64,000 nucleotides of DNA from Gnetum montanum (lineage: Eukaryota; Plantae; Gnetophyta): contig MNCI01002560.1 in the NCBI GenBank assembly GCA_015680685.1, forward strand, positions 100,354 through 164,353. The letters are read 5' to 3'. How positions within the stretch are numbered: position 1 is the stretch's first letter; the number at the start of each line of letters is the position of its first letter. Shown piece after piece: positions 17,961-64,000 of this stretch. The position numbers and the translations under genes were made by a program. The notes beneath the pieces were generated by a model, which was not told where the DNA came from, searched no databases, and saw only the letters and a program-made list of their open reading frames with translations.

Positions 17961-17989
17961 ATGAAGCAATTCTAACCTTGCTTGAGCAA

Positions 17990-28500: not shown

Positions 28501-31500
28501 TTGTTACTAGCTACAAGCTAGCATATATGTAACATCACTATGGACCTACCATAGTAGTAGCTAAACCATAATTTTGTATAGGAGTTGTCTCTATTTCAAT
28601 TGGTGTAGATTGGTCCCAATTTTCGGTTCCCCTAGAACCCCAGAGGATGAAAGCCCAACTATGTCCATTGTCTCAATCTCTAGGTGCTTTAGAGAGTGTA
28701 ACAACCCCTCAAATCATAACAATCATAATGCTAGAGTTAGTTACTTTTTATTAGTGTTTCTAGAGATAGTCTTTGTTTCCCTATTTTCATAGTTTTCATA
28801 CTTAGCTATTTTTTTCAATGTTTTCTGCACTTAATCATTTTTTCGTTTAGTGTCATTTTTTCTTATGTTTTTTTTACATAGTAACATTAATCTTGTGAAT
28901 CCTTCAACCTCTACACTAAGCATAGGGGTAGCTCATCCCATCCAATAGGTTATGGACATTGAGCCCCCACTCAATCCTATATAGCCACAATGGTAGACAC
29001 TCAAACTGCATAACCAATCACCTGAACACATGGTGTTGGATGATGAAAGATACAACCTCCTTTGTAAGAACCTTTAGGAAATTATATCCCTAGACTACCA
29101 AGTAATAGATGCCAAGTGAAGATATGAAATCATACACTGAAATAGTAAGGAGTTCCTTCCTACACTTGATGTGTTCCTCTTGCTCAGTAACACCTTTAGG
29201 TGGCTACAAGACCAACTCATTAGAGTAAGTGGGCTGCAAGAGCAAGATGCAACATCAGACTATGATAAGCCCCTATAGGATAGGTAAGAGGAGTTTGAGA
29301 CCTATTTAAAGAGAAATGTTTCATTCTATGCGTCTGCCTAATAGCCCATCCCCAACTTTGTCCCACACCAATCATAGTTCTCTATCTTCTTTGAGGTAAC
29401 AGTGTCATTTTTGCCACTAAGGTCAATGCCTATGATAGCTAGCAATCAAGTACTACATGCATAAAGTTGAAGATCCACTATCATTTTTTCCTTTTTTATC
29501 TCTTCCTAGTCTTTGTAGCCTTTCCTACTGACATCTGTGATGCCAACACAACCATATGTATACAGAATGCCTCTGTCTCAACCACAAACAAGTCAGGTGT
29601 CCTTCATCCCAACTATATCAGTAGCACCTCCAACAATAGCCCAAGCCACAATAGTGTGGTGGGTTATGGCCTTTGTGCCTATGGCACAGTAGTTACACAT
29701 TTAAAAATACATGTAACAATAAATGCAACAAGCATCCCATGTGGTCGCACATCCCATAGCAAGGTTGTGGGCTACTCAAATAGCACCACAGGTAGCACAA
29801 CCAGTGAAACCTAATGCATCATTCCTAAGTTTGGACCAAGTGTTTCAACTCATTCAAACACTCATGGAGGAAGTTACATAACTCAAAGAAACCAACTGAA
29901 AAATAGTCCATGTCATGGACTTCTACCAATATGACCCCAACAATCCTATGATCCTACCTCTAACTCTACCTCTTGGGGTCCAACTTCCTCAATTCATAAA
30001 ATACAATGGTGGGTGTAGCATTTGAAAGCATCAGTGGCTAAAACACCAAGATTTTTTTAAGTGCACAGCCTAACCCCAAGTCTATGGGAGGGTGACACTA
30101 AAGAAAATAGAAATGGGATGCCCTGAACGGTCTTGTCGATCAGACAGGGACTTATGTGGTGTTAAAACAACTATGTGTGAATAATGATTTTAGAGCATCA
30201 CACGTAGGAATTGGAATAAGTGGGAATACAATATGCATAATAGTGAGAGATTATCAACATGCATACATATAAAAATAGAAATAAATAGATATGCTAACAA
30301 TTTAAATACTATAGAAAAAAATGAAATGAGAGTGTGAGTAAAGAAATGCACCACCCAAGATTGGGGGACATGGATTTTGATTAAATGATGTGTATGATTG
30401 GTGTGTAGCATAGACAAAAATAGTTGGGCAACAAGGCAATATGGTCACACTCTCTAGAAGGCTACAGACATGGTGTTGGCAGACATAGAGGAGTTGATGC
30501 TTGCTAGTCTAAGGGTTGCTATGCTATGCAAGTGCAAGTGTCATGCTCAAGTGTGGGATTAGAACAAAGATTTAGAAGGCTCTAATGCCGAGATTTGCTG
30601 CTTATTCACCTTTTGTTCAACAATCTTCTACCAAAGATAACTAGCAAATGTCAACCTTTAGAATGTCATTTACTAGGGTATTTATAGAGCAAGGGTTGGG
30701 GAGAGATGTGGCTTGAATGCCATGTGTCCTAGGTCCCACGTAGCACAAACATCAATGTGTTACACTGATGTGCTACACTCAAAGTGTGGTGCTACGTTGG
30801 ATAGGACAAGAATAGGAACCAAAAATCTACCAAACTGTCACCATATTGCCTAGACTGCATGTGCCAAAATTTGAAGAACTACCATTTTTTTACAAGAACT
30901 TCTAGAAGAAATGCAAATTGGATCCTACGCTCCAAGACTATGTCTTCCCTCCTCTTCTAAGTAGGGTCAAGTGTAGGGACAACTTTGGGGATCAATCGGG
31001 GGTGTAAGAAAACAAAAAAACTACTAATCTTGGTTGTTGGAGATTCACTGGAGTAGGAATGAAGGTCAATGATGAGCTTTGGGAACTTTTGGGAGGCATT
31101 CAATGAAGTTTTTCAAGAGTTATGCTATCTATGCTACCTAGTGTAATGTAGCATAAACACTTGGAAAAAATGTGCAATTTTGGCTTGCTATGCTATGCTA
31201 CACTGCACAGTGTAGAACCCATTTTTCAATTAATTTCTTCAAAAACTAAAAACACCATTCTGAGATTCAACAAGACAAGCAACTTTAGCATTTGACAGCT
31301 ACACGTTTCATGTCGAAAGAGCCTAATGCCTCTTGGTTTTATTCTTGGGACACTTTTAACCCTAACATCTCTACTACACTATGCAAGGACACTTTTAACC
31401 CTGACACCTCTACTACGTTGTGCAGTGTAGCACAGTGTAGCATCTAGTTTTGCATAAATTTTAACCCAATCTACAATGCTTTTCCATGGGACCTTGATCA

Positions 31501-33584
31501 TGCTCTAAGGATGTAGTAGGATAGGTAGCCTTGGAGGTCGAAGACATGCCAAATGCATCTTCTGTGTTTGGTTCAACACTTAGAAAAATTTGAGTCCTAC
31601 ATGGCCTGCTATGCTATCTATGTTGTGTGGCATAGTGGAGTGTAACAGGTCTAAACATAGAAAATTTGCTAAACTGATTTGTCCATCTTGAACACTTTTA
31701 ACAACTCCTAGCCTAGCATCTAGGTGGACTAGCTACCATGACATGTTGTCAAGCTAGGCAAGCTAGAAAACATAGCAAGCTTGATGGCTCAAAAGATAAA
31801 AAATTTAGCGGGCTGTATACTTCACCTTCAGTGCCCCTTTTATGCAAACTAGCCTTGAAAATGGGTGCTATGCTAACTATGTCAAAGAGTATAGCAGACA
31901 AGCCCATAAAAAACCTTGTAGGAATTAGGACTTCCAGGGTGCCATGTTTTCTGGATGGCCCTACGTGAAACTAGATCGGGAGGAATTTTGTTTAGGTTCC
32001 AACGTTCGAACAAATCTGATGCTGAGTTACGAGAGCTCAAAATTGATGGTGTTTCACTGGCCCCTCTTTGTTGATGTCTAGAGGATTTTCCCAAGATATG
32101 TCAACAAATAATACGAAACACCATGATGAACATGACACCAACACCATTTGTTAGTGCCCACTTAGATGATGCTTTGCTATACTTGAGAGTGCTAGGAAAG
32201 TGAATTATGGAAGAGAACAAGGGATAGGTTTGAGGAGATGCAGTCAAGGGAAAATAGACAAAAAAGGAAAAATGTAGGATGCGATGCCATGAGAACCGCT
32301 ACCATAGTTTGATCCCTCATTGGAATGCTTGGGAGGGAGTCAACACGCATAGGTGTCTTTCCCCTTTGAACTTCAACTTCTCATCGGAGCACATAGAGAT
32401 GGTCGATTCAAGGTTGAGATGGTTGCAAAGTAGCAACTATGCCATTTGACTTGGGCACTTGTCTTATTTCATTTCGTTTTCCCCTTTTATTTTCTTCGCT
32501 CTCTCTTTTATTTATTTTTGTTATTATTATTCTTATTATTATTAGGGTGAATTACACATCCATATTTTCTTGAAGGCAACCATGTCATCACTGTAGGACA
32601 AGTGTTTCCTAATTAGGATGAGTTGTGTTACATCTGTATGGGGCTTTGACCAACCTATAGAGACTTCCCATGGGATGAGTTTCATTACATATATCATGGT
32701 TTTAGTAGTTAAGTGTGGGAAAAGGTTTCATTTTCATTGGGGAGGCTTGAGAGGGAATGCTAGAAATTGCAAAGGGAGAAGAAAGAGGTTAGGTTAGTTG
32801 AAAGGATATCAGGGTATGCACTCTCAAGTAGCTAGGCTAATCGAAGTCGGTACTTTGGAAGAATGTGATGTGTTTCTCTTATGGTGAAACACATTCTTGA
32901 TTGATGCCATCTTAGCGTTATCCTACAAATGCAACAGAGAGAAAACCAAAAAAAATGATTACTATGTGAAGTGAGGGCTAAGTCCTCTTTGCTCGAGACA
33001 TTGTAAGGGTTGCAAGTGTAGTGTCTGGTGTGTGCAATGTCTAAAGCAGGAAGGCCAGTGCAAGCATCAATGATGGTAGGCTGAAAAACTCTAGTAGCCA
33101 CACTAGAGGTGAGGACCCAAGAGACTAGGAGAAATGGTGATGCAAGTGCTTAGGAATCCTCACCAAAGGTAGGAGCTAGGAAATCCAACCATGAGGTGGG
33201 AAGCCAAGCTGCTAAATACTCTTCTAGAATTGGACAATGGTAAGGGCTGGAGGATGGAAAAAATGTGGCTAGGCCATAATAGTACTACAACTCTAGTAGG
33301 AGGTGCTGATAGTAGAAGCTATGGCTAAGATGACTGGCGATGGTGGCTATAGCTCCAGAAGGTCGACAAGATGTCAAATGACATCTTCAAAAGTTGAGCA
33401 AGATGCCAAGGATGGAGATGTTGCAAATTCCCCATAGGATTTTTTCTTAGTGGTACAAACTTCATTTTGGAATTGCAATGTCCCATCCCATCTTGCCCAA
33501 GAGGATTGGCAATGGAAGATTGAAAGTATGCTTGCTCACTTTTTCACAAGATGACATGTGTTGGATCAAAGATGTTGCCTTGCA

Positions 33585-34530
33585 AAGCTAGTTTTAGGTC
33601 TTGGAAGACCATTGGATGTGCTAATTTAAGGCCCTAGTAGATCATGATCCCAGTTTAAGGTCTGGGCAGACCATGTTGTGCTAGTTTAAGTTCCTAGTAG
33701 ACCATGATGTGCTAGTTTAAGGTTCCAACAGACCACTCTACTAGTTTAATAGCATAGAAGATGGGGGATGGCCAGTTTAAGGTCATAGTGGACCATGCTG
33801 TGGGTGCCAGTTTTGTGTCATGGCCCAAGGACATGGTGTGCTAGTTTAATGTTGTAGCAGATGATCTATGCTAGTTTAATGTCATAGTAGAAGATCTATG
33901 TCATTTTTATGTCATAGCAGTGATCTGTGCCAATTTAACATCATAGCAGATGATCTATGCAAGTTTTACATCATAACAGATGATCTGTGCCAATTTAACA
34001 TTGTAACAAATGATCTATGTCAATTTAACATCATAGAGGATGATTTGTACAAATTTTACATCATAGCAGATGATCTATGCTATTTTACCATCATAGTGGA
34101 TGATCTATGCCAGTTTTACATCATAGTGGATGATCTGTGCTAGTTTAATATCATTGCGAATGATCTATGCTAGTTTTACATCATAACAGATGATTTGTGC
34201 TAGTTTTACATCATAGAGGACGATCTGTGCTAGTTTTACATCATAGCAAATTATCTGTGCTAGTTTAATGTCATAGCAAATGATCTATGCTAGTTTTATG
34301 TCATAGTGGATGATCTATGCTAGTTTAACATCATAGTGGATGATCTGTGCCAATTTTACATCATAGTGGATGATCTATGCTAGTTTAACATTGTAGCAAA
34401 TGATCTATGCTAGTTTAACATCGTAGTGGATGATATATGCTAGTTTTACATCATACTAGATGATCTATGCTAGTTTTACGTCATAGTGGATGATCTGTCA
34501 TAGTTTAACATCGTAGCAAATGACCGTGCT
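33585..34530 (-). repeat. ~30-bp tandem array in the 3' UTR of B
   Basis: Unit GATGATCTATGCTAGTTTAACATCATAGCA, about 30 units. Left part heterogeneous, right part homogenised. Confidence 0.95.
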
Positions 34531-34574
34531 TACCCTACTTTATTATTAACATGATACTTCATGTTAAGTGTAAT

Positions 34575-36855
34575 ATGGTTTTAGGTACAGGTAGTTAACA
34601 GGATTAGTAAACTCGTTCGTCTAAGTCAGCAAGCTTGAATGCCCCATTTTCATATGCTTTTGTGACCAGAAAAGGTCCTTCCTAGTTAGCTGAGAATTTT
34701 TTCAGGTGTTCATGAATGGACTTGAAGACTAAATTCCCTTTTTTAATTGGCCATTGGTATAGATTGCAATGATGTTTGTGTCATTATTTCTCTTGATACC
34801 ACTTGATACGATTGAGTGTTTGGATGTGCTCCTTCTCCATAAAGTCAAGATCAATGGTTCTTGACTCATTGTTTTGAGCCTCATCCATAAAGCTTGAGAG
34901 GATCATTCGGAGCATCGGGACCTGCAATTCAAGAGGTAACACTACTTTAGATATGTATACTAGACTATGATATCTTACTTATGGCAGCTCTTCATGTTGT
35001 ACAATAGGCCCAAACCATGTAGACGAGTTGCTCATGTCATCATCGCTTGCTAATGCTAAGCATTTTCTTCAGAAGGTTGACAATGGCTTTATTAGTGGCT
35101 TCTGCTTGACTGTTTTCTTGAGGATAGTATAAAAATGATAAAGAGTGTTTAATACCAAGGTTTTTACAAAAGTCTTTAGTTTTTGCACTATTGAATTAGG
35201 GCCCATTATCTGTAATGATAGTCATAGCAAGGCTAAATTGAGTTACTATATTGTGCAAAATGAATTTACAAACCTATTGAGATGTGCTCTTCCTAAGGGG
35301 AATAGATTCTACCCACTTGGTGAAGTACTTAGCTATAGTAATAATGAAACTATGCCCTACAGAAGACTTGGGTGTTATGGGCCCTATGATGTCTAGTTGC
35401 CAACATTGAAAAGGCCACATGATTTTCGTGATATGTAACTCAGTAGGTGATGCATGTATCAGATTCCCATGATGTTGACATATATCACATGTCCTAACCT
35501 TAGAGAGGCAATGACACTCCATATAGGTCTAGTACTAGCCTAGGTTCCTAATTTTTGCTACCATAGCTCTGGGAGCTATGTGCCCTCCACACAGTCCCTC
35601 GTGGATGTGATCAACGATTCTTTGGGCTTCTTCGCCACTTACACAAGTTAGCAGTATCCCATCATAAGCTCTATGGCATAAATCACCATCACCTACAAGG
35701 ACATACTAGCATGCTCATTTTTGTACAGCATCTTTTTGAGTAGATGTTAAGCCTTGTGGAGGCTCAGCATGTTGGAGGTATGTTTTGACATTGTCATACC
35801 ACTCTTGAGTGTGGGTAGCACTAACAGACGCGATATTTGGTATGTGAACAATACGGTTAGTGCATTTCACTATTAAAGTGGGTAACGTAGCAAACATGTG
35901 TGGTGGCATGCATAAAGCTAACATGGCTAATGCATTGGCTATAGTGTTTTCATTGCGAGGTACATATTGAACATATAAGGTGGAAAATTGCTTTAGTAAG
36001 TACTTCACCAGATCACAGTAAGGTTGTAGGTGTTGTGCTTTATAGGCATAGATCTCTGTGACTTGGTTAATGACTAATTGTGAATCACCTCAAATTGCTA
36101 AATTCTGGATCATTAACTCTTGAGCTGCTAAAATGCCCCTAAGGAGACCCTCGTATTCTCCTATAGTATTCATGCAAAGAAATGTGAAGTGATATGAAAA
36201 AGGTTGGATCTCTTTGGAATGAAATGTGAGAATAGCTGCAGCACTACCACCTTGTGTGGTTGACTCACCATTGAAGTGTAGAACGGCTTCAAAGTCTATA
36301 GGTACTAGGCTTAGGCTACTAACATGCTCATCTGAAAATTTGGGTTCTATTATTACCTAGTCATTATTGGGTGAAGCCGTAAGTTGCATGGCTATTGCTT
36401 GACCCTTTGTAGATGACTGCGCTACATAGTGTGGGCAAATTCTATTATTATTTCTTTCCACCTGGCTATCCTACTACTTTCATATATATTGGTTGTAATG
36501 GACTTGAGTATGTTATAATGATATTGACCTGGCTATGAAACAAATAGTGTTTCCATTTTTTAAGTCCAAATACTAAGGCAAGGCAATTTTTTTGCACATC
36601 ATTATATTTGGCTTCATAGGCTATTAGTGCATGGCTCAGGTAGTAAACAAGAATCTTAGAGCCATCATCCATTTGTTGATAGAGTAAATTAGCAATGGAC
36701 ATCTCTAAAGTTGCGAGATAAATGTAAAAGGGGTTATTCTTTTATGAAGGGTAAATGATAGGAAGATGAACAAGCTCCTTTTTCAAGTTATCGAATGCTT
36801 CTTGGCATTGGTTCGTCCATTCCAAATTAGCTCTTTTTTTAAGTAAGTGTTGCAT
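34575..36855 (-). pseudogene. pol: RNase H, additional RNase H and integrase of B
   Basis: VYYLSHAL..KNCLALVF; YVPRNENTIANALA; WPFQCWQLDIIGP..YFTKWVE. Confidence 0.9.
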
Positions 36856-38300
36856 CACAGGTTATACTTGAAGTGAGTCACAAATTGGCTTAACAATTCT
36901 TCTAACGTTGAAATTGATGTGTAAGAAAGCATGCGATACCAGTCCAAAGCCTTACCAATCAATGATATGGAGAAAACATGAATGATTGCATACAACAATA
37001 GTTGTAATAATAGGGACTCGAATCTAAAATTAATGAGATGGATGTTTGGATCGCCCTCTCTATTGTATTTTGTGAATTGGAGGAGTTTTACCCCAAGAAG
37101 CAACGTAAGTGTAGGAATGACTAGGCTAACTGGATCATCCTAATAAATGTCCATAATTGTAACTATTTCAGAACTAGTGGCTTTAAGCCACTTGAATTCA
37201 TCAGTGAGGATCTGAATAAGCTAAAAGGCTTGGTCTAGACTCAGGGGTGTTACAATAGGTTGTGTAAGTTGAACTGCTGGTGGCATCACCAAAGTAGTCA
37301 TCATGGGTGGTATCATTGGTGGAACTGCAAGTCCCAGTGGAGGAGCTATTGGAGAAACTCCCACTAGTGGGGCCACTTGGGCAGCCCACAATCCTATGGG
37401 TCGTGCCACTAGAGCTACAACCATTTGTGGTGCCATGGGAATGGTCACCTGCCTCATTGCTAAAGTAGCCCATGGCCCCGTGGTTAGTTGTGCCATGTGC
37501 AAAGCTTGATACATCTAGGATTGCACATACTACAATGTCTATGATAGTTGGACAGTAGGGAACGATGTTAGTTCCCACCACGTGGTTGAGGTTGGGACTA
37601 CAGTTGGCGGTGGAATCAATGTAGAGGAAATAATGGAAGTAGGGCCCATTTTTGGTTGTGTCGTAGACATGGTATGTACATATGGTAATGTAGGCATCAT
37701 AGGTTGAGAAAACTATATAAACTACGAAGGAATACTAAAGGGAAAGAAAATTGAAGGCCCTACATGCTATTGAGTTAACAACATTTCATGACTTCCTACA
37801 ACCAAGGAAGGTTTGGGTTGTAAAAGGGTTGTCATTGTCACCAAAGGCAAAGGACTATAACTAGTATGGATATAACACATAAGTGGTCTATGAAGTTATT
37901 GGGTAAAGTGGGCCACCACTTTTAGAATGGAACTCAAATTCCTCTTGCCCATCATGAAGGGTTTCATCATAGTGAGATGCTGCATCTCACTCATTTGACC
38001 CACTCAATCGAATATGTTGATTCAATATCCATTAAAACATTTGAGTGAATGGTATAATGGCCCTATAAGTAGGAAGGAAATCCCTTCCATTCTAGTGAAT
38101 AATTTCAAAGTTATGCTTTTCTTCGTATTCCTAACGGTCTAGCAGGAGGCCCACTTGGATCCTTACACATAAGAAGTTATATAACTCTTCATCATGAGTC
38201 ATGTGTTTAGGCGATTGATGTTGCAATCGAAGAGACTGCCATGGAATCCACACTAGGCTAGGTGATTACATAGGATCCATCGCATGTTCCAAGGGATGGG
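36855..38300 (-). pseudogene. gag: gag N-terminal part of B
   Basis: LLQFTKYNREGDPNIHL..FSISLIGKALDWY..FVTHFKYN. Confidence 0.8.
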
Positions 38301-41300
38301 CTATCCCCAAGCTCAGGGTGATGACTAAGGTGCTAGGTGGGTTCATTTCTTTACTATACCAAAAAGAACGCAAGAAGTAAAGCAATAGGTAAGCTACATA
38401 GAAAGCAAGCCAAAAATAGAAAATTTTGGAAACATTGGAAAAGTAGTGGTTTACACTGCTATGCTTGCTACACTAGGTGGGACTGTCATGCTGATAGGTT
38501 TGTTATTCTACACTTGTTACACTATACATGTTATGCTACATAGAACACAGATAGTTTAATGCAATACATCATTTTTGGCTCTTTGTCCTACAGGGTTCCA
38601 AGGGAACTATCAATTGGAACCTGACTACACCAACTAAAACATAAACAACCCCTACACTAGCCTATGATCTAGCTACTGTTGTAGTAGGTCCATAGGGGTG
38701 TTACATTTTTGTTAGCAAGGAGGTACAAAAGGCACATAGGACTACTCGTGATGCATAAAAGGAACATGGAAGTTCATGCCCTCCTTCTAGTGCAAGAAAA
38801 CTATAGCATCCAAAAATGTTGGTGGCTAGAACACCAAGAGGTTATTAGGCACATAGCCTAACCCCGAGTACATGGGAGGGAAATGCTAGAGAAAACAAAA
38901 ATGGGATGCCCTGAATGATATTGTTGATCAAATAGGGACTTATGTGGTGTTAAAACAATCATGTGCGAATAATGATTTTAGAGCATCACACGTAGGAGTT
39001 GGAATAAGTGGGAATACAATACAAATAACAATGAGAGATTATCAATGTGCATATATATGGCAATAGAAAGAAATAGATATGCTAATAGTTTAAAATACTG
39101 TAGTGCAAGGAAAGAAATGCACCACCCCAAGATTTCGGGATGTGGCTTTTGATTGAATGATGTGTACAATTGGCATGCAAGATACACAAAAACAACTAGG
39201 CAGCAACGCAATATGGTCACACTCTCTAGAAGGTTGTAGATGTGGTGTTGGTAGAAACAAAGTTGACACTTGTTGGTCTAAGGGTTACTACACTATGCAT
39301 GTGTAGGTGTCATGCTCAGGTGTGGGAGTGGAACAAGGATTTGGAAGGCTCTAATGCTAATATTTGTTACTCATCCACCTTTTGTTCATCAATCTTCTTC
39401 CAAAGCTAACTGCCAAAAGCCAACCCTTAGAATGTCATTTACTGGGGTATTTATAGAGCCAGGGTTGGGGGAGAGATGTGGCTTGGACACCACTTGTCCT
39501 AGGTCCCACATAGCACAAACGTGGATGTGTTACGTTGATGTGCTACACTCAAAGTGTGGTGCTATGCTGGATAAGACAAGAATAGGAACCAAAAATCTAC
39601 CAAACTATGACCATATTACCTAGACTGCATGTGCCAAAATCTAAAGAACTACCATGTTTTTACAAGAATGTCTAGAAAAAATGCAAATCGGAGCCTATGC
39701 TCTAGGACTACATCTTCCCTCCTCTTCCAAGTAGGGTCAAGAACAGGGACAAATTTGGGGATCAATGGGGAGTGTAAGAAAATAAAGAAAACTACCGATC
39801 TTGGTTACCAGAGAGTTGCTGGAGTAGGAATGAAGGTTGATGACAAGCTCTGGGAACTTTTGGGAGGCATTCGATAAAGGTTTTCAAGTGATATGCTATC
39901 TACACTACCCAGCATAACATAGCATAAACACTTAGAAAAAATGTGTAATTTTGGCTTGTACGCTACACAACATAGCACAACAAAGCACTCATTTTTCAAT
40001 TAATTTCTTCAAAAACTAAAAACACCACTTTGAGACTCAGTAGGGCAAGCAACTTTAGCAATTGGAAACTACACTTTTCATGTTGAAAGAGCTTGATACC
40101 TTTTGGTTTCATTCTTGAGATACTTTTAACGCTGACACCTATGCTACGCTATGTAGCATAGCATCTAGTTTTGCACAAATTTTAACACAATCTGTAATTC
40201 TTTACTATGGGACCTTGATCATGCTCTAAGGACGTAGTAGGACAAGTAGCCTTGGAGGTTGAAGACCTACCAAATGCACCTTCTATGTCTAGTTCAACAC
40301 TTAGAACAATTTGCATCTTGCATGGCCTGCTACATTGTTTACGTTGTGCAACATAGCGAAGTGTAATAGGTCTGAACATAGAAAATTTTCCAAACTACTT
40401 TTTCCATCCTAAAAACTTTTAACAACTCCTAGCCTAGCATCTCGGTAGCTTGACTACTGAGACATGTGTCAAGTTAGGCAAGCTAGAGAGCATAGCAAGC
40501 TTGATGGCCCAGAAGTTAGAAAATTTTCCAAGTTGTATAGTTCACCTTTAGTGTTCCTTTTGTGCAAACTAGCCTTAAAATAGTTGCTACACTAACAATG
40601 CAAAAGAGAATAGCATATAATCCCAGAAACAACTTTGTAGGCATTAGGACTTCCAAGGTGCCATGTTTTCTGCATTGCCCCATGTGACACCAAACTCGGA
40701 GGAATTTTGTCTAGCTTCCAACGCTTGAACAAATTTGATGCTAAGTCACGAGAGCCCAAAATTGATGGTGTTTTAATGAGGGGGATCACAATGCCCACCT
40801 TGTAAATTTCCATTCTAAATGACTACTTCTACAAGCATGGTCCCATGTGATCATTTTCATCTTTGCCATGTCCCTAACTAGCAAAGCTCTTGACTAGTAC
40901 CATGCACTCCCTAAGGCTTCCATATCCACTTTGGAAGAATTTCTTAGACAATTTGTAACTTGCTTCAAGTTTAACTTGAAGCCCAAATCCACTCTAGACT
41001 AATTAATGAACATTAAGAAAGGGATGCTATAGCTAGTACAAATATTCATACAATGTTGGACTGCTTCCCTCAATGAAATTCATGGGCCAATAGCAAAAAG
41101 TTACCTTTTAGCTATCTTCAAAGGTGCAGTAAATGACTTTATCAAGTTAAAACTTTACTATTTAGCCCCACACTTTCTCAACCAAGAATTTTCTCAAATA
41201 AATAGCATACAAGATGCTACAAAGGCCAATAAGGACCTAGCCTATGTGGCCTATAAAAATGCACACATGAAAATGGACAAAGAAAAGGGGAAGATAACAA

Positions 41301-43859: not shown

Positions 43860-46800
43860 AGGGTTCTTCTTCCTTCTCTTCCTCTACTGCTTCACTAGGG
43901 CCTACTCCATCCCCCAAAATCTACATTAAATAAAAATAAAATAATAAATTAGCTAACAAATAAAGTGACATGTAGCATTATAATAAAGTAAATAAAAATA
44001 ATTTGAAATAGAACAACTTGAGAAGGACCTACATCCATGTTTGGGGGCATCCTATCAAGGACAACCTCCAAGTATCAGAGGATTTCATCCTTCAATAGCC
44101 ATATCCAATTCTCCTCATCAAGGTCAATACCTGCAAGGGTTTACCCTTTCTCTATAACTATCCATGAGGGCAGCCTTTATGAAAACCTAGTAGAAGTAAT
44201 TTCTCTTGAAGGTACAACGATGTTTCTCTTGGGAGTCCCACTCACCACTACATTGTTGGAAAATAGGTCATAAGCCTGTGTTGCACCAATTGCATCAAGA
44301 AATATCTCTCAGCAACGATGCTCCACAAACTCATCTTTGTACCTTTTAAGGTATGCCTCACATTCCTACTTATAATGGTGCCTATGATTCTTTTGAGTCT
44401 AGCCCCATTGATACACTTTTGCACTGTAATCCTTCTAGTTTTGATTCTTCCTTGCTAGTAGGTCCATTTGCAATCATTGTTTAATCACCTCAAAAGTGGC
44501 CTTATTATTGCCCCAAATGGCTGACCAATACCTAGCATAGGTAACTTTAGCTATGTGTTAGGAACCATTTTTTTTTTCACATGTCACCAAGAAGTCATAA
44601 TGGGACTGCAGGTCCTCCAATTTTTCATCCTAGCTTGCCCCCCCCCCCCCCCCCCCCCCTCTCCTGGAGTGTATGCACCCATTTTTATACGTTCTTGTTA
44701 ATGTGCCTACACTCTCAAAATACTCTCGTAGATGAGAGTGCACATTTACTTATCTCATCATATACATGGTGAGGCACTTGCTCCACCTCGAGGGGAAACT
44801 CAAGCATAGCATCAACTTGGGCCACCCTGTTTGGATCCCATAGAAGCTAAGAGCCTATTATCACATAATAGGGAAAGCAACGTTAGACATAAACCAAGTA
44901 GTAAATTAGTAGAGAAAAATAGATAAATAAATACATACCAATATTAGGGTCTATTTTTTGTATATGGTCCATCATGTCATCCACCAAGCCTTGCATAAAG
45001 GCAAACTTGTCAAGAGCCTCTATCCATGGGTACATATGGAAGGTGGATGTAGATGCTGGGCATTCAACAGAAACCTTGATGGCTATAACACAACACACTT
45101 AGTAATTATCAAAACATACAATAGCCAAGGGTGTAAGGTCTAAATAATAATAATAATAAATAAAGAGAAAAAAAGATGATGGTGCAACACTCCTACCAAA
45201 CAAGCCCTCAAATGTGAGAGCGGGGGGATCACTGATCTGCATGGCATTAAAGAAATTTTAAAACTCACCCCCTTCAAACTACAGTAACCCTTCTTCCTCA
45301 AGTTTTTGTAGCACTTCTATGGCTTCTCATTCCTCTTCATCTACTACTTGTTCCTCAATTTGAGGAGGGACATCATCCTCTATGGGCTCTGCTACCGTGG
45401 TAGGGATCTTGTTGCCTATAGCACATTAGTTAGGATTAGAATTTACAATAATTAGTATAGTAGATCATGGAACATTATAGTAGTATCCAATAATTCATAC
45501 TTACTTGCAATTCCTAAGCAAACATTGCAAAGCTTAAACTGAATCATTCTACCACTCTCCTCCACTTCATGCATGGGCTCCTCCATTGGGCGTGGTTTCT
45601 TAATCTTTGTTTTGGACAATCCCACTACCTTAACAATGATTTGTGCCCCTCTCACTACATTTCCAATGTTCACTGATGGGGCCTCACTTGCACTATCACA
45701 TGTGTGGAAGATCATCTCACATTACCTTTGGTTATAATAGAAAATGACTTGCTGATGGCCTCTAAAGAATCTTGTGACTACATGGTGTTGAACGGGTGTT
45801 GGATCTATGGCCTGGAAATTTGCCTACAATCTTGGATCACCCACTGCCCTTTCTTACAAACCACCAAAAACTCTACAAACCTTCATAGGCATGCTATGAA
45901 GAAGGTGAAGTGCATGTGCAATCTCGCTTGGATGTTGTGGCACAACCTAACAATTTCAGCACATAGTCTGCCGACAAGGTAAGAGGCCCAATTGTACTAT
46001 GTCCCCTCCTCTATTGCATCCTTCATCATCCAAGATTGTTTCACCCCAATAATATTTCATTAGGAGAGAAAATTTGGGAACATGCATGCATGAAAGATTG
46101 GATAGAGGTGGTGGACCATGGGGAACCTCACTTCTTTGACTTGAATTCCTTTACGAGACTTAGATGCACCTAGCCACTCCTCAATGTCCCCTTTTTGGTC
46201 TAAGTCTTTTTCAATATTTTTGATAATTGTTGGGACCTCAGAAGGGATTCTAAAGAGGTCTACAAAAAATTCATCTGTAATGTCAAAGGTCACCCACACA
46301 CCTAAAAGAGTCATGAAGCAATCAGTTCTCTTACTAAAATAGTCAATAATGGCAATCATCTCAGCCACTGGGATACTTGGGCTAATGGCCAAAAAAAGGT
46401 CCATTATTCCAACCTATTGGAGCTTCCTGGTTATCTCCACTAGAGCCTCATAGCACAACCAATGCTATGAACAATTTACCTCACTATATTTCATGATGAG
46501 GATGGCCTCAATATGGCCTATTACAACCACCATGACCTCTCCTAACTTAACCATTACTACAATAGGTAAAAGTAAAGTTAGTAACATGAGAAAAGCTGAG
46601 TAAAAAGTGCATAAGAAATCAATGATACATTACTCATGTGGCACAAATGGTATAAAAGATGGTGGTGGTGGGGCTAAAACCTCCTCCATGCTTGATATGC
46701 TAATCACCCACTCAAGATCCAACCAACCAAGAGCTAGACACCTCTCATAAGACCTAGAATATCAATGAGGGAGCTCTACTAGGTCTACCCCAATCTACTC

Positions 46801-48640
46801 AATCATCACTATGCAAAAATTTTCAAAAGATGATCATTCTTGTAGGGCAATGAGAGTCAAGTTCAATGCCCCAACCTCATTGTGAAGGCCATTTGGATCA
46901 ATAGTGAATCTAGCAATAGATGTAAGTGGTAAGAATCTTAACATGAGTCATAATCAAATGGATACAATGAAAAATTGTAAAAGGGCTCACCCTCTAGCAC
47001 AATAAACTATCCAAGGTGGGTTCTAGAAAATGGTATGTATGCATCAGGCAATGAACAATGTGTTGTTCTTATTGTAGCACTAAAATTCTAGCATCTGCCA
47101 GATCGTAGACAAAAGTCTAAGGGCCCTATGGCCTTGACCTAAACTTCCTACTCTTTCATCACCAGAAAGCTCATCAAATATGAACCTTAGGATGCCTCAA
47201 TTCATCCCAAGCAACATTGTTTCCATTATGACATTGGCTACTTCTGCTACCAAGTGTGACCATATCATCACACTAAAGTGACAGAGTAGAAACTCCAAGA
47301 ACCTTTATGCTCCTGACTAGAACCATACCACCTAGTGATCCACAGGTCTATCTAGGGAAAGTATGTTTGGCATAGGCTCACTTATGCAACACAAGATACC
47401 CACCAATTCAACCATAACAAGGATGGATTTCAATAATACTTTGTAGCTATAGTAGTAACAAGAGGAGAATGTTAGCATTGGATACAAAAAATAAAAAAAT
47501 GCATAAAAATTAGACTTAATATATTAGTAAAAATCTTAACTTTTCCACCAAGCCCCATGGGAAAGGGACTTTAGCATACTCATCTAACATGCCTAGTCCC
47601 TAATGGGGCATAGCACTAATATCTATGTTTCACGTTCATGAATGTTACAGCTTTGAAAACATCAAAAAAATTGTTAACTATCAATTACGCTCCCCATAGG
47701 GCATAACTCAAAAATTTTCAAAATCTTCTAAGTGTTGGCTACACTCCCTACAAAGCATAACCTTCAAAAAACTATAAAAGCACTATTTGTAGAGCGTAAC
47801 AACTACAAAACTTTCTAAAATAGCAAAAAATTTCCAATTGTTGGTTACACTCACTATAAAGTGTAACCTTCAAAACTACAAAAAATTTCTAATTGTTGAC
47901 TATGCTACGTATAGAGCATAATGCTAGAAAATTTTTAATTGTTCTATTACACTCTCAAGAGCATACCTTGGTGAGATAGTCGTGACACTCACACTCACCC
48001 TATCTAGACTGTTACACTCTGTGTTCACACAAAACATTCTAGCTCTATCCCATGTCATGTGTGGAATGTCAAAAACCCTTGTTCTACATCACATGAAATA
48101 CACTAAAAATCCTTATTCTACATCATGCATTGTATGCTAAAAACCCTTGTTCCATTTCACACACAATATGCCAAAAACCCTTGTTCTACATCACACATGG
48201 TATGCCGAAAACCCTCCCAACAAAAAAAAACCCTTGCAACAAAGAAATAATAAACCCACAAGAATCCACCACATGCACTTCCTCTCCTAGTTGTGACTCA
48301 TGGCAACCACAGTGGTGGTGCTGGTCCCTACCCAAGGCAAGCCATCCTCAAAATCCCAAAACCCTAAAGTGAATAGGAAGAAAGGAAAGAAATCACAAGG
48401 AAATATTGTACGCCTTACCTTACTAATGGCATTTCCCTCTAGTCCTGTATGCATGACCTAGGAAGTCACTTCAGTGCATGTTCTCCTTTGTCCACATTGG
48501 TGAGCTTGGGATGTTGATATTCACTATGGTGCATCATGGTTGAATGGTTATGTTGTTATTTTCTTCTTCCTCTTTGCTACACTCTAGCTTCCTCTCTTTC
48601 GTTGCTACACTCTGACTCCCTTTACCTTGGTTGTGATATG
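43860..48640 (-). pseudogene. Antisense multi-exon accessory gene of A: NIF/FCP1-like pseudophosphatase plus PMD-like region
   Basis: Exons ~48419-48640, 46991-47446 (LVMVELVGIL..RFLEFLLCHFSVMIWS..KNNTLFI..NPP), 46634-46909 and ~45450-46556 (FDITDEFFVDLFRIP..YNWASYL), with further exons to ~43860. GT-AG boundaries. Homologous to 62197-64000. Confidence 0.75.
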
Positions 48641-52629: not shown

Positions 52630-52669
52630 TACGCAATGCCATGCCAATGACAAAGTAAGGTAAGAGAAC

Positions 52670-55254: not shown

Positions 55255-55269
55255 GGTTTTAGGCAGAGG

Positions 55270-55286
55270 CCCTCCTTCTAGCGCCA
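55270..55286 (-). promoter_or_regulatory. PBS TGGCGCTAGAAGGAGGG
   Basis: Lies 5 nt after the LTR end at 55292. The same motif in decayed form follows the 5' LTRs of A, B and C. Confidence 0.85.
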
Positions 55287-55291
55287 ATTTC

Positions 55292-56573
55292 TGTATCGCC
55301 TGAAATCTTTGGTCCCCAGCTGGAAGGAAACAGAGACCATGGGATCGCAGGGCATGCACAGAAGANCGGTCCCCAGCTGGAAGGAAACAGAGACCGTGGG
55401 ATCGCAGGGCATGCACAGAAGATCCTACCTTTGCCTGAGGGCGAGCTGGAATGCACGAAGGTAGAGTACCTTGGGTGGTCTGCACGCAGATCAGACAAGG
55501 ATTTCCCCGAACGTATACCGAAGTGCTACATGCTGGGTTATGCGTAAACGACGTAACGGGCGTAAATGAGAGCGTAAAAAGTGTAACAGATGTGGATAGG
55601 GCGTAAATGTAAACGAGCATAAACAAAAACACATGTAAGAAATTAGCATAAACTGCAAACAATGGTATTATAGAGTCAAAGTACAGTGCACCGGTCTAAC
55701 GCAGTTGTGATGGAGCACAAGGCGGACGAAAAGCCCTGGTGGATGCAGGGATGACTCGGCCAGTTTGCACGGTCGGCGGAGTGTAGAAACTGCGTGCACG
55801 GCATACAGGGCTTCCCAGCGTAAGAGGGTTTTTGGCTTTGATGCACAGTGTAATTGCTCCTGGGTATGCTCTAGGATTTTTGCAAACTAACCTTGACCAA
55901 ATGGAAAATCAGGGCTTTTATACCGGTTGTTATGCTAGACTCGAGTTAGGAGACACGTGGCGCATTGACCGGGTGCATACAATTTACAAATATATAACAT
56001 ATTACATCTACTGGGCATATACGCGGGGCGTATATGCTACATCAGGATGGCATATATGCTAGGCCTATATGCTGAACGTGTTGGGCGTGTGTGAACTTGG
56101 GTGGAGATACTATGGACGTTGGCCAGCGTATACGCCGATGGATGCTGGGCATATACGCTGGGGCATATACACTAACGGTTGCCAACTTACTTCAATTCTT
56201 TCTCTTCGGTGCTGTCTTCATGCTGTCTTTGGAGATTTTTTCGTCGGGCGTATGCATCTGTTGTACCTATCGAGCATACATGTGAGGCGTGTATGCTAGG
56301 CATGTACGTTGGGCGTGTACGTTGGAGAATGCAGGGCGTATACGCTGGAGAATGCCGGGCGTATACGCTAGAGAATGTCGGGCGTATACGCTGTGGGTGC
56401 AAAATTGGGCATATATGCTGGGCGTATACGCTGGCACAGTATACTTAGTGAAAACTAAGTATTTCGATCCCCAAAGTTGCCATGTGTGATACCAAATGTA
56501 GCCGTTGTTGTCCATGGGTCCCAGGGACCTGCTCTTTTCTGGAGAACCAAGTTCAAAATTTTGTGGTGTTTCA
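55292..56573 (-). repeat. LTR of element D
   Basis: Minus strand runs TGAAACACC...TACA, preceded by PPT CAAAGAGGGGTCAA (56574-56587). Rich in GCGTATACGC. Confidence 0.88.
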
Positions 56574-57980: not shown

Positions 57981-58004
57981 GCACGTACCTGAGCTTGCAC
58001 TCAA

Positions 58005-61000
58005 ACGTAAAACGGCTTTAGGTACAAGTGATTGGTTGGATTGGAAAGCTCGTTTCCTTCCACGTCAGCTAGCTTGAATGCTCCATTGTCAAATGCTTTA
58101 GTGACCAAGTAAGGCCCTTCCCAGTTAGCTAAGAATTTGTCCGAGTGTTCCCGAACAGCTTTAAGCACAAGGTCACCTTCTTTGATAGGGCACTTGTTGA
58201 TGTTATGTCGATGTCATTGCCATTGTTGTTTTTGGTACCATTCGATTTGGTCGAGTGCGCGTATGCGTTCCTCTTCCACCGAGTCCAGGTCGATGATACA
58301 CAGATCATTATTCTGCCCGTCATTGAGAAGTCCAAAGAGTGTGATCCTTAAAGATGGTACCTGTAATTCCAAAGGTAAAACAGCTTCTGAACCGTAACCT
58401 AGACTATATGGTATTTTACTTGTTGACGTTCAGTGCGTAGTACGGTATGCCCACAATGCGTACACCAATTGTTCGTGCCACTTCCTCTTGCTTTGGGTAA
58501 GCATTTTCTTAAGTATTGTAATAATCGTCTTGTTTGTTGCTTCCGCTTGTCCATTGCTTTGAGGATAGTAAGGGGATGAAAACGAATGTTTGATCCCTAG
58601 GCTTTTGTAAAAGGTTTGGGTTTTGGCATTGCTAAATTGTGGCCCGTTATCAGTGATGATTGTTATGGGAATGCCAAAACGGGTTACAATGTTTTCGAGG
58701 ATGAAATTGCATACATGTTTAGATGTAGTTTTGCGAAGGGGAGCAACTTCTACCCACTTCGTAAAATATTTGGTTGCGGTTATGATGAAACTATGCCCTA
58801 CAAAAGATGAGGGTGTTATCGGGCTGATAAGGTCCAATCCCCACTTTTGAAAGGGCCATGTGATTTGTGTTGTATGCAACTCATTTGGCGGGACATGTAT
58901 TAGATTACTATGTTTTTGGCAAGTGCTACATGTTTTAACCTTGGAGAAACATTCATACTCCATGTGCGTCCAATAGTAGCCTAAGCGTCTGATTTTCGTT
59001 GCCATGGCTTTTGGCGCTATGTGTCCTCGACATAGTCCCTCACGTACCTGATCAACAATAGTTCAGGCATCGGTACTACTAATGCACGTTAGCAATATGC
59101 CTTCGTAGGATCGACGACACAATGTGTCCCCTACCAGGGTATACTACTTAGAACATTTGCGCACTGCGTCTTTCTATGCATTTGTTAGATGTCGTGGTGT
59201 TTCACCATGTAGAAGGTATTCTTTTATGTTGTCATACCATTCTACCGCATGTGTTGTACTAACAGATGCAATTGGCAACGTATCGGGAGTATCGATTATC
59301 GGTTTGGCACAATTGACTATGGAGCTTGGTAGTGCGTGAAACATGTCTGGCGATATGTTTAATGCTAATGTGGCTAACGCGTCTGCAATGGTGTTATCAT
59401 TTCTAGAAACGTGTTGCACATTGATGTTTTCAAATCGCCTCATTAGGTGTTTTGCCAAGTCATAGTATGATTGTAAGTGTTGGGCTTTGCATGTATAGAC
59501 GTCTGTGACCTGGTTTAGGACTAGTTGCGAGTCTCCCCTGACTACAAGCCATGTGATGTCTGAAGCTAGTGCTGCCACAAGGCCTCTAAGGAGACCTTCA
59601 TACTCCGCTATGTTGTTCGTACAGTGAAAGTCGAAATGATAAGCAAAGGGTTGGATCTCCCCAGAGGGATAGGTGATGACAGCAGCTGCACTTCCTCCTC
59701 GAGAGGTGGATGCTCTGTCAAAGTTTAGGATGGCATCGTAGTCATTGGGCACTGTGTCTATGGCGCTTATACTCTCATCCGGGAACTCTGGCTCTATAGT
59801 CGCTTGATCGCGTGTTGGTGATGTGGCCATTTGGTTTGCTATGGCTTGACCCTTGACTGATGATTGTGCTACGTAGTACAGGTCAAACTCGGCTATCATG
59901 GCTTTCCACCGGGCTATTCGACTTGTTTCATAAGTGTTCCCTGTTATGGCTCTTAATACATTGTCCTTGCAAATTATGTACACCTGGTTATAGAAGAGGT
60001 AATGTCGCCATTTTCTTAAGGAAAAGACCAAAGCTAAACATGACTTCTCTACATCGTTGTACCTTTTCTCGTGGGCAACTAATGCATGGCTCAAGTAATA
60101 TACAGGGACTTCAGTTCCGTCATCTTATTTCTGGCAAAGCATAGACGCGATTGACGATTCCGAAGTGGCGAGGTAAATGTAAAACGGTTTATCGTTTTTG
60201 GGCAGGTAAACCATAGGTAGTCGGGCAAGTGCTGTTTTGATGTTCTCGAATGCTTCTTAGCACTACAGAGTCCATTCAAAATAGACGTTTTTGTGTAATA
60301 GGTGGTTCATAGGTTTTAGTTTGTCCGTCAGTTTTTCTATGAAGCACCTGATAAAGTGCAATCTACCTTGTAGACCTCGAAGTTCGGTAAGGTTGCCTGG
60401 TAGTTTTAGGTTTGTTATGGCCTTAACATTATCGGGGTCCACCCGTATTCCTGCTTCTGAGGCTATAAATCTGAGCATTTTTCCTGTTTTGATGCCGAAG
60501 ACACATTTTTTTGGATTAAGTCTTAGTTCATACTTCAAACAACGTTTCAATACTAAGTTGAGATCTTGTACATGTTGTTCTTCAGTTTTTGATTTAACTA
60601 CAATGTCATCCACATAATCGTTGAGCGATCGTAGCATGTAATCACTAAAGATAAATGTCATCGCTTTTTGATACGTAGCTCCTACGTTCTTGAGACCAAA
60701 GGACATCATTGTATAGCAAAAGGTTCCCCATGGTGTCATAAAGGTTGTCCTAATTGATGTTCCAGGTTGATACGTATTTGATTGTATCCTGAGAAGCCAT
60801 CCATAAAAGACAATAAGGCATGCCCAGCAGTTGATTCAACAAGTTGATCGATGCTGGGTAGAGGAAAATCATCTTTTATGGTTGCAACATTTAGATCTCG
60901 GAAGTCAATGCATAAGCGAATGCTTCCATTTTTCTTTGGGATAATGACCATGTTGGACACCCACTCGGCGTAACCAATAGTCCGAATGAAACTGGCTTGA

Positions 61001-61500
61001 TAAAGCTTGGTGATCTCATTGCAAACTGCCAATGCCACCTCGGGTCTAACCTTTCATGCCTTTTATTTTACTGGTCTCAATTTTGGGTCAAGAATGATGT
61101 TGTGTTGGACAATTCTAGGGTCTAACCCGGGCATGTCCGTATAGGACCAAGTGAAGGCTTTCATATTTTCCCTAAGCACATTCTTGATGTCTTTGGCCAA
61201 GTGCGGTTGTAATAGCATGCTTAATTTTAATACTTTAATTTCCCCATCAGGCATGGTAATGGGGGTTTCCACCAATGGGTCTTCGGTGATATTTTCGGCT
61301 TCTATGTCTAGGAATTTTGTCATGCCTTCGTAATCGTCTGTTGTTTGCTGTGTTGAGGATATGACTACGTCGTCTGTTGGTGAACTCAAGTTGATGAGAT
61401 TTATGTTAATGTCTCGTGCAATTTTGTCATACAGTCCGTCAATGATTAACGGTGCGGTTAAATGCTGGCAGTCCATTGAGCTTGCTCCTGCCAATAAACA
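58005..61500 (-). pseudogene. pol: pol of D: RT, RNase H, additional RNase H, integrase (few frameshifts)
   Basis: AFTWSYTDMPG, LCIDFRDLN, FMDGFSGYNQI, YVDD, LNFD..CTNNIAEYEGL, WGLDLI..TDNGPQF..SNGQAEATNK. Confidence 0.97.
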
Positions 61501-61597
61501 GAGAGCTGAATAAGAGAAAGGGGAAATGTTCTATGCCTTTTGGTAATTTTAAACTATGTGTACATGCATAATAGTGGATTATCATCACACCGGGACA

Positions 61598-61924: not shown

Positions 61925-61936
61925 CACTATATAAAG
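61925..61936 (+). promoter_or_regulatory. TATA box of the antisense accessory gene
   Basis: CACTATATAAAG about 270 bp upstream of ATG 62197. Confidence 0.5.
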
Positions 61937-62196
61937 AAGGGGGGGTTTCATTTGTTTCTTACTTTGAATCGTGAGCATAAGCGACAGAGCGTAAACTGTT
62001 AAAGCATAAGCGTAGACAATCGTGCCCTGGCGTAAGCGTAAATTTACTCATGAGCGTAAACGCTGAAGAGTAACCCTTAGCATAGATGCCTAACAATAAA
62101 CCCCAGCGTAGACACAAAGTGTAGGGTTTCAGGTGCCGGCGTAGACAGTCCTTCTCCACAGCGTAAACTTGTGCGATCAGTGTAAAGGAGGCCGAG

Positions 62197-64000
62197 ATGG
62201 GCAAAGGAAAAGAAGTGGAAGGCCAGGGGAGGAAGGGTCCCAACTTGACCTTTGCGGAGGAGACTAAAGCCATGTTGCAGGGCCTACCTATGCCAAGGAT
62301 CTCTTCATGGCCTGTGACATCCCATAGGTAGGCTCTGATCCTTGCCTCTGTTATTATTTTTTTGCTTTCCTTTTTCAGCGTAGACAGTCTCGGCGTATAC
62401 GCTGAGCGTAGGGGGTTTTCAGCATAAGGGGTTTTCGGCGTATACACCAAGCATGACTTCATAGCGTAGGCTATTGGGTTAGCATAGATTGTCAGGGCAT
62501 AATCAGACTTATCAGCGTAAGCAATTTTCCTGCACTATTATGTTAGCGTAAGCCACGGCATCATGAGTTCTCTATGCACGAAATTGTCAGCGTGATTTGT
62601 TTGTTTTATCAGCGTAGATTTTGTTTACTGTGACGGCGTATACGCCGAGGGTTTTTTTAGTGTATACGCTGTGCGTGCATAGTTGTTTTTACGGCATAGA
62701 CTTGCTTTTCATGTTTCTGGCATAAACTTGTTTGTTGCCGGCGTAGACTGTTTACGCTGAAAGCGAACTTGGGTGTATACGCTAAGGGTTTCTTCGGCGT
62801 ATATGCTAAGCATAAAATAGTTCATTGTCGGCGTATACGCTGAGTTAAGCAGCGTGTTACGCTAAGCGTAACAGTTTTGCCAGCGTATACACTGGTTTAC
62901 GCGGCGTATACGCTGAGTGTGAACAGTTAGTAAAATTTTTAGATTTTAAGTGCCGATTCATGATGTGAACTTTTGCTTTTCGGGCTGTTTTGAAGCATGG
63001 CTAATTAATGGTGGCGTCGTGATTGGTTACAGGGACAGTAAGCGCTTCCTCCTTGTTGTTGAGCTTGTTGGGATCTTAACATGGGTTGACCCCATTGAGG
63101 CTGGGGAGACTCCCCCGGATCTAACCGTGGATGATGACGAGGTTTGGTTCAGGGAAGGCGCATGTGAATTTCTGGCCTTCCTATTAGACAATTTCGAGGT
63201 GGCTATCTGGTCGAACTTTAGCGAGGTGATCGCACGGAGCGTGCTTGAGGCAATGCTTCCGGGAGCTGCAGAGGGTGTCATGGTCTTCATAGAAGACATT
63301 GACAAGGGGCCATTTGTTAACAAGGATGGTTCTACTCGTGGGCCCAGGTCAAAAAGCCCATTAACGTGTGTGTGGGCACTATTGCCATAACGGTTAGACT
63401 ACCTCAACAACACTCTGTTCATAGCTACCCACGCGCACACATTGTTCCAGAATCCTCCTGGCACAGTGTACCGAGTGGATAGGTAGGACTCTTTAAGTTT
63501 ATTGTTTCCTTCTGCCGTTTTGTGTTTGTTTCTTGTTTTGACATTTAGTTGTTTATAGACCGAAGACCAACCCGGACGGGACATGCATTGAGGATGAAGG
63601 ACTAGCTCTTGCTCGCACTTCCTTGGAGGCATTCATGACGGGCCCCACCCTTCGTGGAATTGTACTGGGTCAAACGAAGGGAGCGATCGTCCATTTTCAC
63701 AAGCAGTTCTCCAGAGTGTTCGCGATGTGCAAAGCTCGTGGGTGGCTTCATGAAGACTGGTCGGACAATGGGCCAATCTTTCCTCGTGACTTTGGCAGCA
63801 CATCTAAATCCGCCACTAACGGTAAATGATAACATTTCCTAGATATGTTAGTGAGTTGGTCCAACTGTTTGGATTTACGCTGATATGACCATTTTAAATT
63901 GCTTTTACAGTTGATGTACCTTCTGGTGGGGATCCGGTGACAACTGGATGAACTGAGACTACCTTGTCGAAGAAGTTCGGGGAGGTGACTAAGGCCCAAA
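62197..64000 (+). CDS. Antisense spliced accessory gene of D: NIF/FCP1-like (HAD) pseudophosphatase; continues beyond the window; two point stops
   Basis: Exons 62197-62327, 63033-63482, 63559-63821 and 63911-end splice in frame at GT-AG. Motifs KRFLLVVELVGIL..VWFREGACEFLAFLLDNFEVAIWS..LNNTLFI..QNPPGT. Stops TAA at 63388 and TGA at ~63949 look like C->T changes. Confidence 0.8.

Follow-up and report, generated by a model that had tools for sequence, protein, structure and literature searches.

We analyzed a 64,000-nucleotide stretch of the genome of the gnetophyte Gnetum montanum (GenBank assembly GCA_015680685.1, contig MNCI01002560.1; hereafter the window), which contains nested Ty3/gypsy long terminal repeat (LTR) retrotransposons, termed A, B, C and D, all assigned to one clade by self-alignment and landmark searches. 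In D, [AG]GCGTA half-sites are clustered in the LTR and in the first intron of a predicted antisense accessory gene, and the geometry of paired half-sites differs between the four elements while the core word is shared. We propose that a multimeric protein would dock on these arrays as double-stranded DNA and, once bound, would keep both predicted promoters active against silencing. The likeliest binder is the product of the element's own antisense accessory gene; we give this reading a probability of roughly 0.4. The analysis is based on the window, public sequencing runs and protein libraries.

Motif clusters in the LTR and accessory gene of element D

By its sequence, D is classified as a young Ty3 element of the Tat/Ogre type, in which an antisense gene precedes pol. 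RT_RNaseH and then RVT_3 matches lie in a single open reading frame (ORF), followed by rve (Pfam), and aRH sits between RH and INT, the domain order of Ogre and Retand and the placement by which Tat/Ogre elements are recognized (PMC6317226). Because D is much less decayed than the older elements A, B and C (CpG observed/expected ratio in pol: D 0.77, A 0.13, B 0.28), motifs were also counted in a decay-aware form, in which CG may appear as TG or CA. The parts of D are as follows, where PBS denotes the primer binding site.

55292..56573 (−): LTR of D, starting with TGAAACACC and ending in ..CA, from landmark search and sequence
55926..56573 (−): U3 of D, holding the decay-aware palindromes of the LTR; a TATA-like box, read from sequence, follows them near 55925
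55292..55925 (−): R/U5 of D, with single half-sites, mostly GCGTAA on the + strand (13 decay-aware)
55268..55286 (−): PBS-like TGGCGCTAGAAGGAGGG following the LTR of D; A, B and C each have a decayed counterpart after the 5' LTR
58001..61170 (−): pol of D (RT, RH, aRH, INT), with stops and frameshifts
61505..61530 (−): polypyrimidine tract and AG, predicted from sequence as an Ogre-like splice acceptor just upstream of the D pol frame
61927..62196 (+): antisense accessory gene, TATA box plus 5' leader
62197..62327 (+): predicted exon 1 of the accessory gene, from sequence
62328..63032 (+): predicted intron 1, GT..AG, phase 2, frame kept into exon 2
63033..63483 (+): exon 2, with a predicted NIF/FCP1-SCP-fold domain and an in-frame stop near 63390

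Expected counts of exact GCGTA were obtained on both strands from 200 dinucleotide shuffles per region. The motif is enriched 5- to 9-fold in the U3 (14 versus 2.2 expected), the R/U5 (5 versus 1.0), the accessory 5' leader (8 versus 0.9) and intron 1 (24 versus 2.9), and in each of these regions none of the 200 shuffles reached the observed count. Pol shows no enrichment (4 versus 3.2, reached by 82 of 200 shuffles); elsewhere in D the 3' region and the spacer contain no copy and exon 2 onward contains one. Decay-aware GCGTATACGC palindromes number 20 in the whole 64 kb, 11 in the U3 of D (56015-56431) and nine in intron 1 (62393-62913), two regions 6 kb apart, with none in pol. Nine palindromes are exact (five in 55500-56450, four in 62330-62930, none in pol), and intron 1 carries 37 decay-aware half-sites in total. 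The motif clusters are real and non-random, which bears out the initial annotation of this stretch, where GCGTA and palindrome clusters had been described in the LTR and intron 1 of D and not in pol. Their extent is larger than described there: a third cluster occupies the accessory leader (61928-62196), with 13 half-sites GCGTA(A/G) in the same orientation.

A palindrome spacing of 21-24 bp recurs in both the U3 and intron 1 of D (7 of 18 within-region intervals). Tandem Repeats Finder called a 23-bp array of 3.6 copies in the U3 (56311-56393) and no tandem array in intron 1. Past the motifs the two regions are not colinear, as the score of the real alignment is equalled in 83 of 200 block shuffles that preserve the motifs, and this lack of colinearity rules out intron 1 as a recent copy of the U3. 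Downstream of the two TATA boxes of D the half-sites point opposite ways relative to transcription, with which a DNA rather than an RNA site fits. The initial annotation had also proposed co-evolving binding sites for the accessory protein at both promoters, an interpretation that these data support in part; the clusters are indeed non-coding and lie near both predicted promoters, and the geometry common to the U3 and intron 1 of D is unique in the window.

Half-site geometry and its co-variation between LTR and intron

C (+) contains A (+), which in turn contains B (−), while D (−) runs from past the window end down to 55292. LTRs of this clade start with T(G/A)AAACACCA, and the PBS type is common to all. 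The names A, B and C were left undefined in the initial annotation and were assigned to coordinates in the present analysis.

23690..25158 (+): 5' LTR of C, start approximate, with TACGC-16-GCGTA pairs; flank AGCGTAGT
26667..28421 (+): 5' LTR of A, with TACGC-6-GCGTA pairs; flank mostly AGCGTAG
30013..40775 (−): element B, inside the gag of A, with LTRs 83.5% identical and motif pairs in U3
43900..48536 (−): decayed multi-exon antisense accessory gene of A, between gag-PR and RT, 3' end approximate
47448..48418 (−): predicted intron 1 of the accessory gene of A, flank most often AGCGTAA
49456..52614 (+): pol of A, 65% identical in nucleotides to pol of D

The core [AG]GCGTA is common to all four elements, and the way in which half-sites are paired differs. 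D has head-to-head pairs with a gap of 0 (11 in U3, nine in intron 1). Tail-to-tail pairs are spaced at 6 bp in the LTR of A (five pairs), at 10 bp (four) and 8 bp (one) in intron 1 of A, at 16 bp in C (three) and at 6 bp in B (two in each LTR). The element-specific trait is thus half-site geometry, with the core word shared. The initial annotation had treated the motifs as element-specific and those of A, B and C as a different, decayed variant. The difference in geometry stood, whereas the core is not private to any element, and intron 1 of D also contains one A-type GTTACGC..GCGTAAC pair, at 62856. Mere decay of the D palindrome as the origin of the A/B/C variant is ruled out, as no decay-aware palindrome occurs outside D. 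The strings that had been named for these elements are mostly visible only when CpG decay is allowed: exact GAGCGTAG occurs 0 times in the LTR of A, 1 and 0 times in the two LTRs of B and once in C (decay-aware 5, 2, 3 and 6, respectively), and GAGCGTAAC occurs once in 47600-48000 in exact form and seven times by a looser decay-aware pattern.

The core is enriched subfamily by subfamily. Decay-aware counts in U3 are 16 versus 4.0 expected in C, 20 versus 5.5 in A, 31 versus 8.4 in D, and 24 versus 6.2 and 19 versus 6.1 in the two LTRs of B; intron 1 of A has 20 versus 4.5, and none of 200 shuffles reached any of these counts. Flank profiles pair by element: the distance is 0.08 between the U3 and intron of D and 0.08 between those of A, versus 0.30 and 0.27 across elements, a contrast reached by 0 of 5000 site permutations in a comparison of two elements with both regions, whose sites are non-independent within an element. 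Exon 2 of A and D aligns at 64% over 396 nt, whereas intron 1 shares only a 44-nt local match, which indicates that the arrays were rebuilt separately in each lineage, at two distant sites.

The expected co-variation of LTR and intron is present in two of two elements, but it is imperfect in A and thin. Several observations weigh against its interpretation as self-recognition by each element. A and D alone carry both an LTR and an intron 1 region; within A, spacing differs between LTR and intron (6 versus 10 bp), as does the +1 base (G in 14 of 19 versus A in 9 of 19); and the distance from the A intron to the R/U5 of D is 0.08, equal to that between the A intron and the A U3. B keeps the motifs although no accessory gene was found in it, and a single conserved host factor would explain just as well why four elements share the core.

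The last point leads to an explanation that we consider somewhat unlikely, in which a host transcription factor that recognizes a CGTA core, and not the accessory protein, would bind the arrays as enhancer-like sites, amplified by the element at both promoters to respond to cues of development or stress. This explanation would account for a core that stays the same in four elements despite 35% divergence between the pol genes of A and D, for the motifs of B, and for the fact that the sole domain identified in the accessory protein has a non-DNA-binding fold. It gives no reason, however, for subfamily changes in orientation and spacing (0, 6, 10, 16 bp) or for the appearance of a new geometry at two distant sites, as in D. 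CGTA is the core of sites bound by the NAC family; at most sites here an A or G precedes the core, rather than the TT of NAC sites. For the motifs of B, trans-activation and simple descent would fit equally.

Other copies of the family and transcripts

Nine of 22 listed sequencing runs contain part of the stretch, and none of the 22 is a bisulfite run. Four DNA runs were used (X1, X5, X6 and X8), which represent three studies and four organism labels, X1 possibly being the source of the window. Copies were compared over 62600-62950 with 1128-1663 contig records per run, where contig depth was not taken as copy number. In this interval 35 positions vary at 25% or more; they were classified over 62612-62935, with the thin edges dropped. 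At four palindrome sites that are CpG-decayed in the window copy, the site is intact in 70-96% of summed depth in the four DNA runs, so most copies of the family have kept the palindromes intact. Among non-CpG positions, 0 of 42 in palindromes vary at 25% or more versus 19 of 185 in spacers (Fisher p=0.03); with lone half-sites added, 2 of 72 positions vary (p=0.07). The low variation at palindrome positions across copies is only suggestive of constraint.

Counter to this interpretation, a comparison of positions that are polymorphic among copies is not significant (0 of 42 versus 13 of 185, p=0.13), and the motifs were defined on the window copy, with mapping that favours motif-bearing contigs. 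In the window copy of D, 14 of 40 palindrome CpGs are deaminated, and non-motif CpG positions are mostly kept as well (three of 19 listed are variable). CpG decay gives no sign of a motif-specific shelter from methylation, for which a dead copy is a poor test. Against a role of the accessory gene, depth over exon 1 and intron 1 is 0-0.6 in three RNA runs, of which 2-26% each was read, and no intron-1 joint is among the 15 of 172 joints listed. RNA reads are present in these runs over the LTR, the 3' region and pol.

The same contigs bear on a neutral origin, in which slippage expands motifs in AT-rich non-coding DNA and template switching or gene conversion between LTR and intron makes their co-variation mechanical. 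Deletions and jumps from one motif copy to another are frequent in the contigs, the polymorphism-only test of constraint is non-significant, arrays are common in these elements (23 bp in the U3 of D, 25 bp after the PBS of C, 30-34 bp in A and B), and family-specific arrays without an assigned function are typical of Retand (PMC11963269). Such an origin is nonetheless distinctly unlikely in our assessment, given that intron 1 has no array called by Tandem Repeats Finder and is not colinear with the U3, that the 10-mer is fixed while spacers differ, that the core persists in four elements though the surrounding non-coding DNA of A and D no longer aligns, and that clusters adjoin both TATA boxes.

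No related locus was found in viral contigs, either by protein or by the paired-motif pattern, and the pattern of polypurine tract (PPT) and LTR start gave one locus in metagenome contigs, which was unrelated on inspection.

The accessory gene and its predicted product

In both A and D the accessory gene runs antisense and precedes RT; in A it also follows gag. The D gene continues past the window end, with later exons outside the window. In A, a polypyrimidine and AG signal equivalent to that of D occurs at about 49190-49212 (+), just upstream of pol. These acceptor-like signals upstream of pol in A and D suggest that the whole accessory gene may lie within an Ogre-like PR-RT intron. PR in A was recognized by eye, and no gag-PR/pol splice joint is among the joints listed in the RNA runs.

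The gene position allows for a further explanation, in which the intron 1 and leader cluster serves pol, either as the upstream portion of an LTR-like promoter inside the element or as a hairpin signal in the PR-RT intron. We regard this as quite improbable. The sense strand does show the same order in both regions, palindromes followed by single half-sites, the acceptor-like signal of pol is located about 800 bp downstream of intron 1, and as single-stranded DNA the intron has a better fold than its shuffled versions (z=-4.7, 20 shuffles). On the other side, no sense-strand TATA occurs between the D clusters, where the single match comes from the accessory TATA read in reverse, and palindrome-rich tracts fold anyway; single-strand folding as a signal was rejected and judged a by-product of the palindromes. 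An internal promoter would also leave the binder unnamed and is compatible with both the host-factor and the neutral explanations.

Exon 2 of D matches Pfam NIF (PF03031) at E=2e-4 and 21.5 bits, just under the cut-off of 21.8, and its protein is 42% identical to exon 2 of A, where a NIF-like exon 2 is followed by a second domain at 46560-45886. HMMER searches against 1.84 billion representatives gave 44 matches, 42 of which align over the NIF domain; all eight that were scanned are NIF, and the top two matches are spurious bacterial repeat proteins. The HMMER profile retained 151 NIF columns alone, so that the second domain lies outside that search. The structural model of exon 2 has a predicted local distance difference test score (pLDDT) of 73.9 and was built with NIF homologues, which makes its Foldseek matches (CTDNEP1, SCP1 and TIM50 at the top, E 1e-5 to 1e-4) partly circular. 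Pfam and the model together point to a HAD Rossmann-like FCP1/SCP fold. Both A and D have ELVG in place of DxNG, and the C-terminal acidic pair is gone in both (ATH/AxC), as compared with DLNG/DVNG and DD in eight of eight aligned homologues. Since the catalytic aspartates are gone in A and D, the accessory domain is predicted to be a pseudophosphatase conserved across divergent subfamilies.

The initial annotation had drawn a comparison with the VANC proteins of VANDAL transposons. No DNA-binding or VANC/DUF1985/PMD domain was detected by Pfam or fold searches, with the later exons of D outside the window. For the second domain of A there is no Pfam, PDB-sequence or homologue match, with Pfam thresholds of E<=1 to 10 and decayed exons, and no fold match from a model whose pLDDT of 39 is too poor to use. 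Word-based protein searches returned nothing for exon 2 or the second domain of A and are weak negatives. By eye, the second domain of A looks PMD/DUF1985-like, with no database match.

Comparison with known systems

The VANC21 protein binds to a motif of 9 bp that occurs in introns and further non-coding regions of the VANDAL transposons of Arabidopsis (PMC5735166). Like that system, the elements described here have short motifs in their own non-coding DNA, including introns, that differ between related families, together with an accessory gene inside the element. Tandem arrays of the motif were called in the U3 of D and in C, and none in intron 1 of D. They differ in being Ty3/gypsy LTR retrotransposons (RT, RH, aRH, INT, LTR, PPT, PBS) rather than Mutator-like DNA transposons, in a palindromic or paired, CpG-containing motif whose core is constant while geometry varies between families, and in that DUF1985 was not detected. 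The system is VANC-like at best by analogy and not a VANC member.

The elements resemble the Ogre/Tat lineage IV-V (PMC4408406, PMC6317226) in their aRH between RH and INT, long LTRs, tandem arrays, extra gene, a gag-PR that lies apart from pol in A and a predicted acceptor-like signal before pol. Their extra gene, unlike those of Ogre/Tat elements, is antisense and multi-exon, is located between PR and RT instead of 5' of gag or 3' of pol, and begins with a phosphatase-fold domain. Gymnosperm Tat clades in the same sources have aRH before RT or after INT, unlike D. Tat elements carry PMD extra ORFs (PMC4408406, PMC6317226, PMC5418596), and the PMD structurally resembles VANC (bioRxiv 2024.09.27.615353, PMC13547354).

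Retand, with its antisense TRP28 ORFs, offers a parallel in having an antisense accessory gene with a proposed DNA-binding regulator as product and family-specific repeats. The Retand gene, however, is situated after pol and before the 3' LTR, a TRP28 match was not found here, and no target motif is described in the available part of PMC11963269. The predicted NIF domain fold is that of FCP1/SCP/CTDNEP1/TIM50-type HAD phosphatases, from which the accessory domain differs by the loss of the catalytic aspartates and by being carried by a retrotransposon.

Self-encoded, sequence-specific anti-silencing has been shown for DNA transposons (VANC, TnpA and some transposases, in the literature consulted). 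A regulatory role of extra ORFs in LTR elements is left open or not covered in the available parts of PMC12844716, PMC11963269, PMC4408406, PMC11728184 and bioRxiv 10.64898/2026.08.24.746577. Among titles and abstracts, no paper was found that describes the motif in a retrotransposon, a NIF domain carried by an LTR element or this arrangement of genes.

Other features of the window

The LTR of D is preceded directly by a PPT (56573-56590 area) and followed directly by a PBS (55255-55292 area), by which this LTR would be common to a truncated tandem unit. The internal part after the LTR stops about 30 bp on, running into the gag of C, and to judge from these landmarks this end of D is a tandem or recombined remnant. 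The U5 of D contains a 57-bp duplication (55311-55422). A 25-bp motif-bearing tandem array follows the PBS of C (25445-25532), and a 34-bp tandem array lies in the 5' part of intron 1 of A (48046-48215). The 3' LTR of A is truncated and begins at 54485. B is flanked by GTGGG (30008-30013) and ATGAG (40776-40780), likely a 5-bp target duplication with two G/A changes. A lone LTR-start fragment of the same clade at 19765-20160 has C-type motif pairs at 15-16 bp.

A second motif family, [AT]AAACT[AG], forms arrays at 57590-58000, 61510-61927, 52615-53100 and 33550-34560. After INT its sense/antisense counts are 7/0 in A, 22/0 in B and 8/0 in D, and before pol of D they are 4/1; the arrays are strand-specific and thus possibly an RNA signal.

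The remainder of the window contains a GC-rich LINE-like element (about 7000-13500, −) with endonuclease and RT matches, beyond which lie 15/48-bp and 45-bp tandem arrays (13100-14270), and direct repeats of 79% identity (4241-4781 and 16408-16939), possibly the LTRs of another old element around the LINE. Remnants of a chromovirus-type SH3 domain and, more weakly, of an integrase were identified at 2700-3700, and further decayed RT remnants at 17500-18900 (−). The window contains no tRNA genes.

Proposed role and significance

Palindromic or paired sites, their opposite direction relative to transcription at the two promoters, a recurring two-turn spacing and lineage-specific rebuilding point to a multimeric DNA-binding protein as the ligand of the [AG]GCGTA arrays. 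We place the element's own accessory protein first among the candidates, because geometry shifts with subfamily at two sites simultaneously and because the extra ORFs of Tat elements often carry a PMD, which is structurally VANC-like. In the mechanism that we propose, the second domain (PMD/DUF1985-like by eye) would read DNA and the dead phosphatase domain would recruit or shield a phosphorylated partner, for example Pol II, the outcome being activation or anti-silencing. As a hypothesis, this mechanism is plausible.

In a wider proposition, a clade of plant LTR retrotransposons would carry a self-encoded, sequence-specific activator or anti-silencer, through an antisense gene in the PR-RT intron whose product would combine a dead fold of the Pol II C-terminal domain (CTD) phosphatase type with a DNA-reading domain and would bind the arrays of the LTR and of its own gene with positive feedback; subfamilies would gain private specificity from the orientation and spacing of a constant half-site. 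We hold this to be rather doubtful at present. The locus provides a candidate pair in a young many-copy family: a motif whose geometry is specific to the subfamily, and an accessory gene that codes for an unusual predicted pseudophosphatase domain. If true, the proposed self-recognition would help to explain the amplification of such families in heavily methylated plant genomes.
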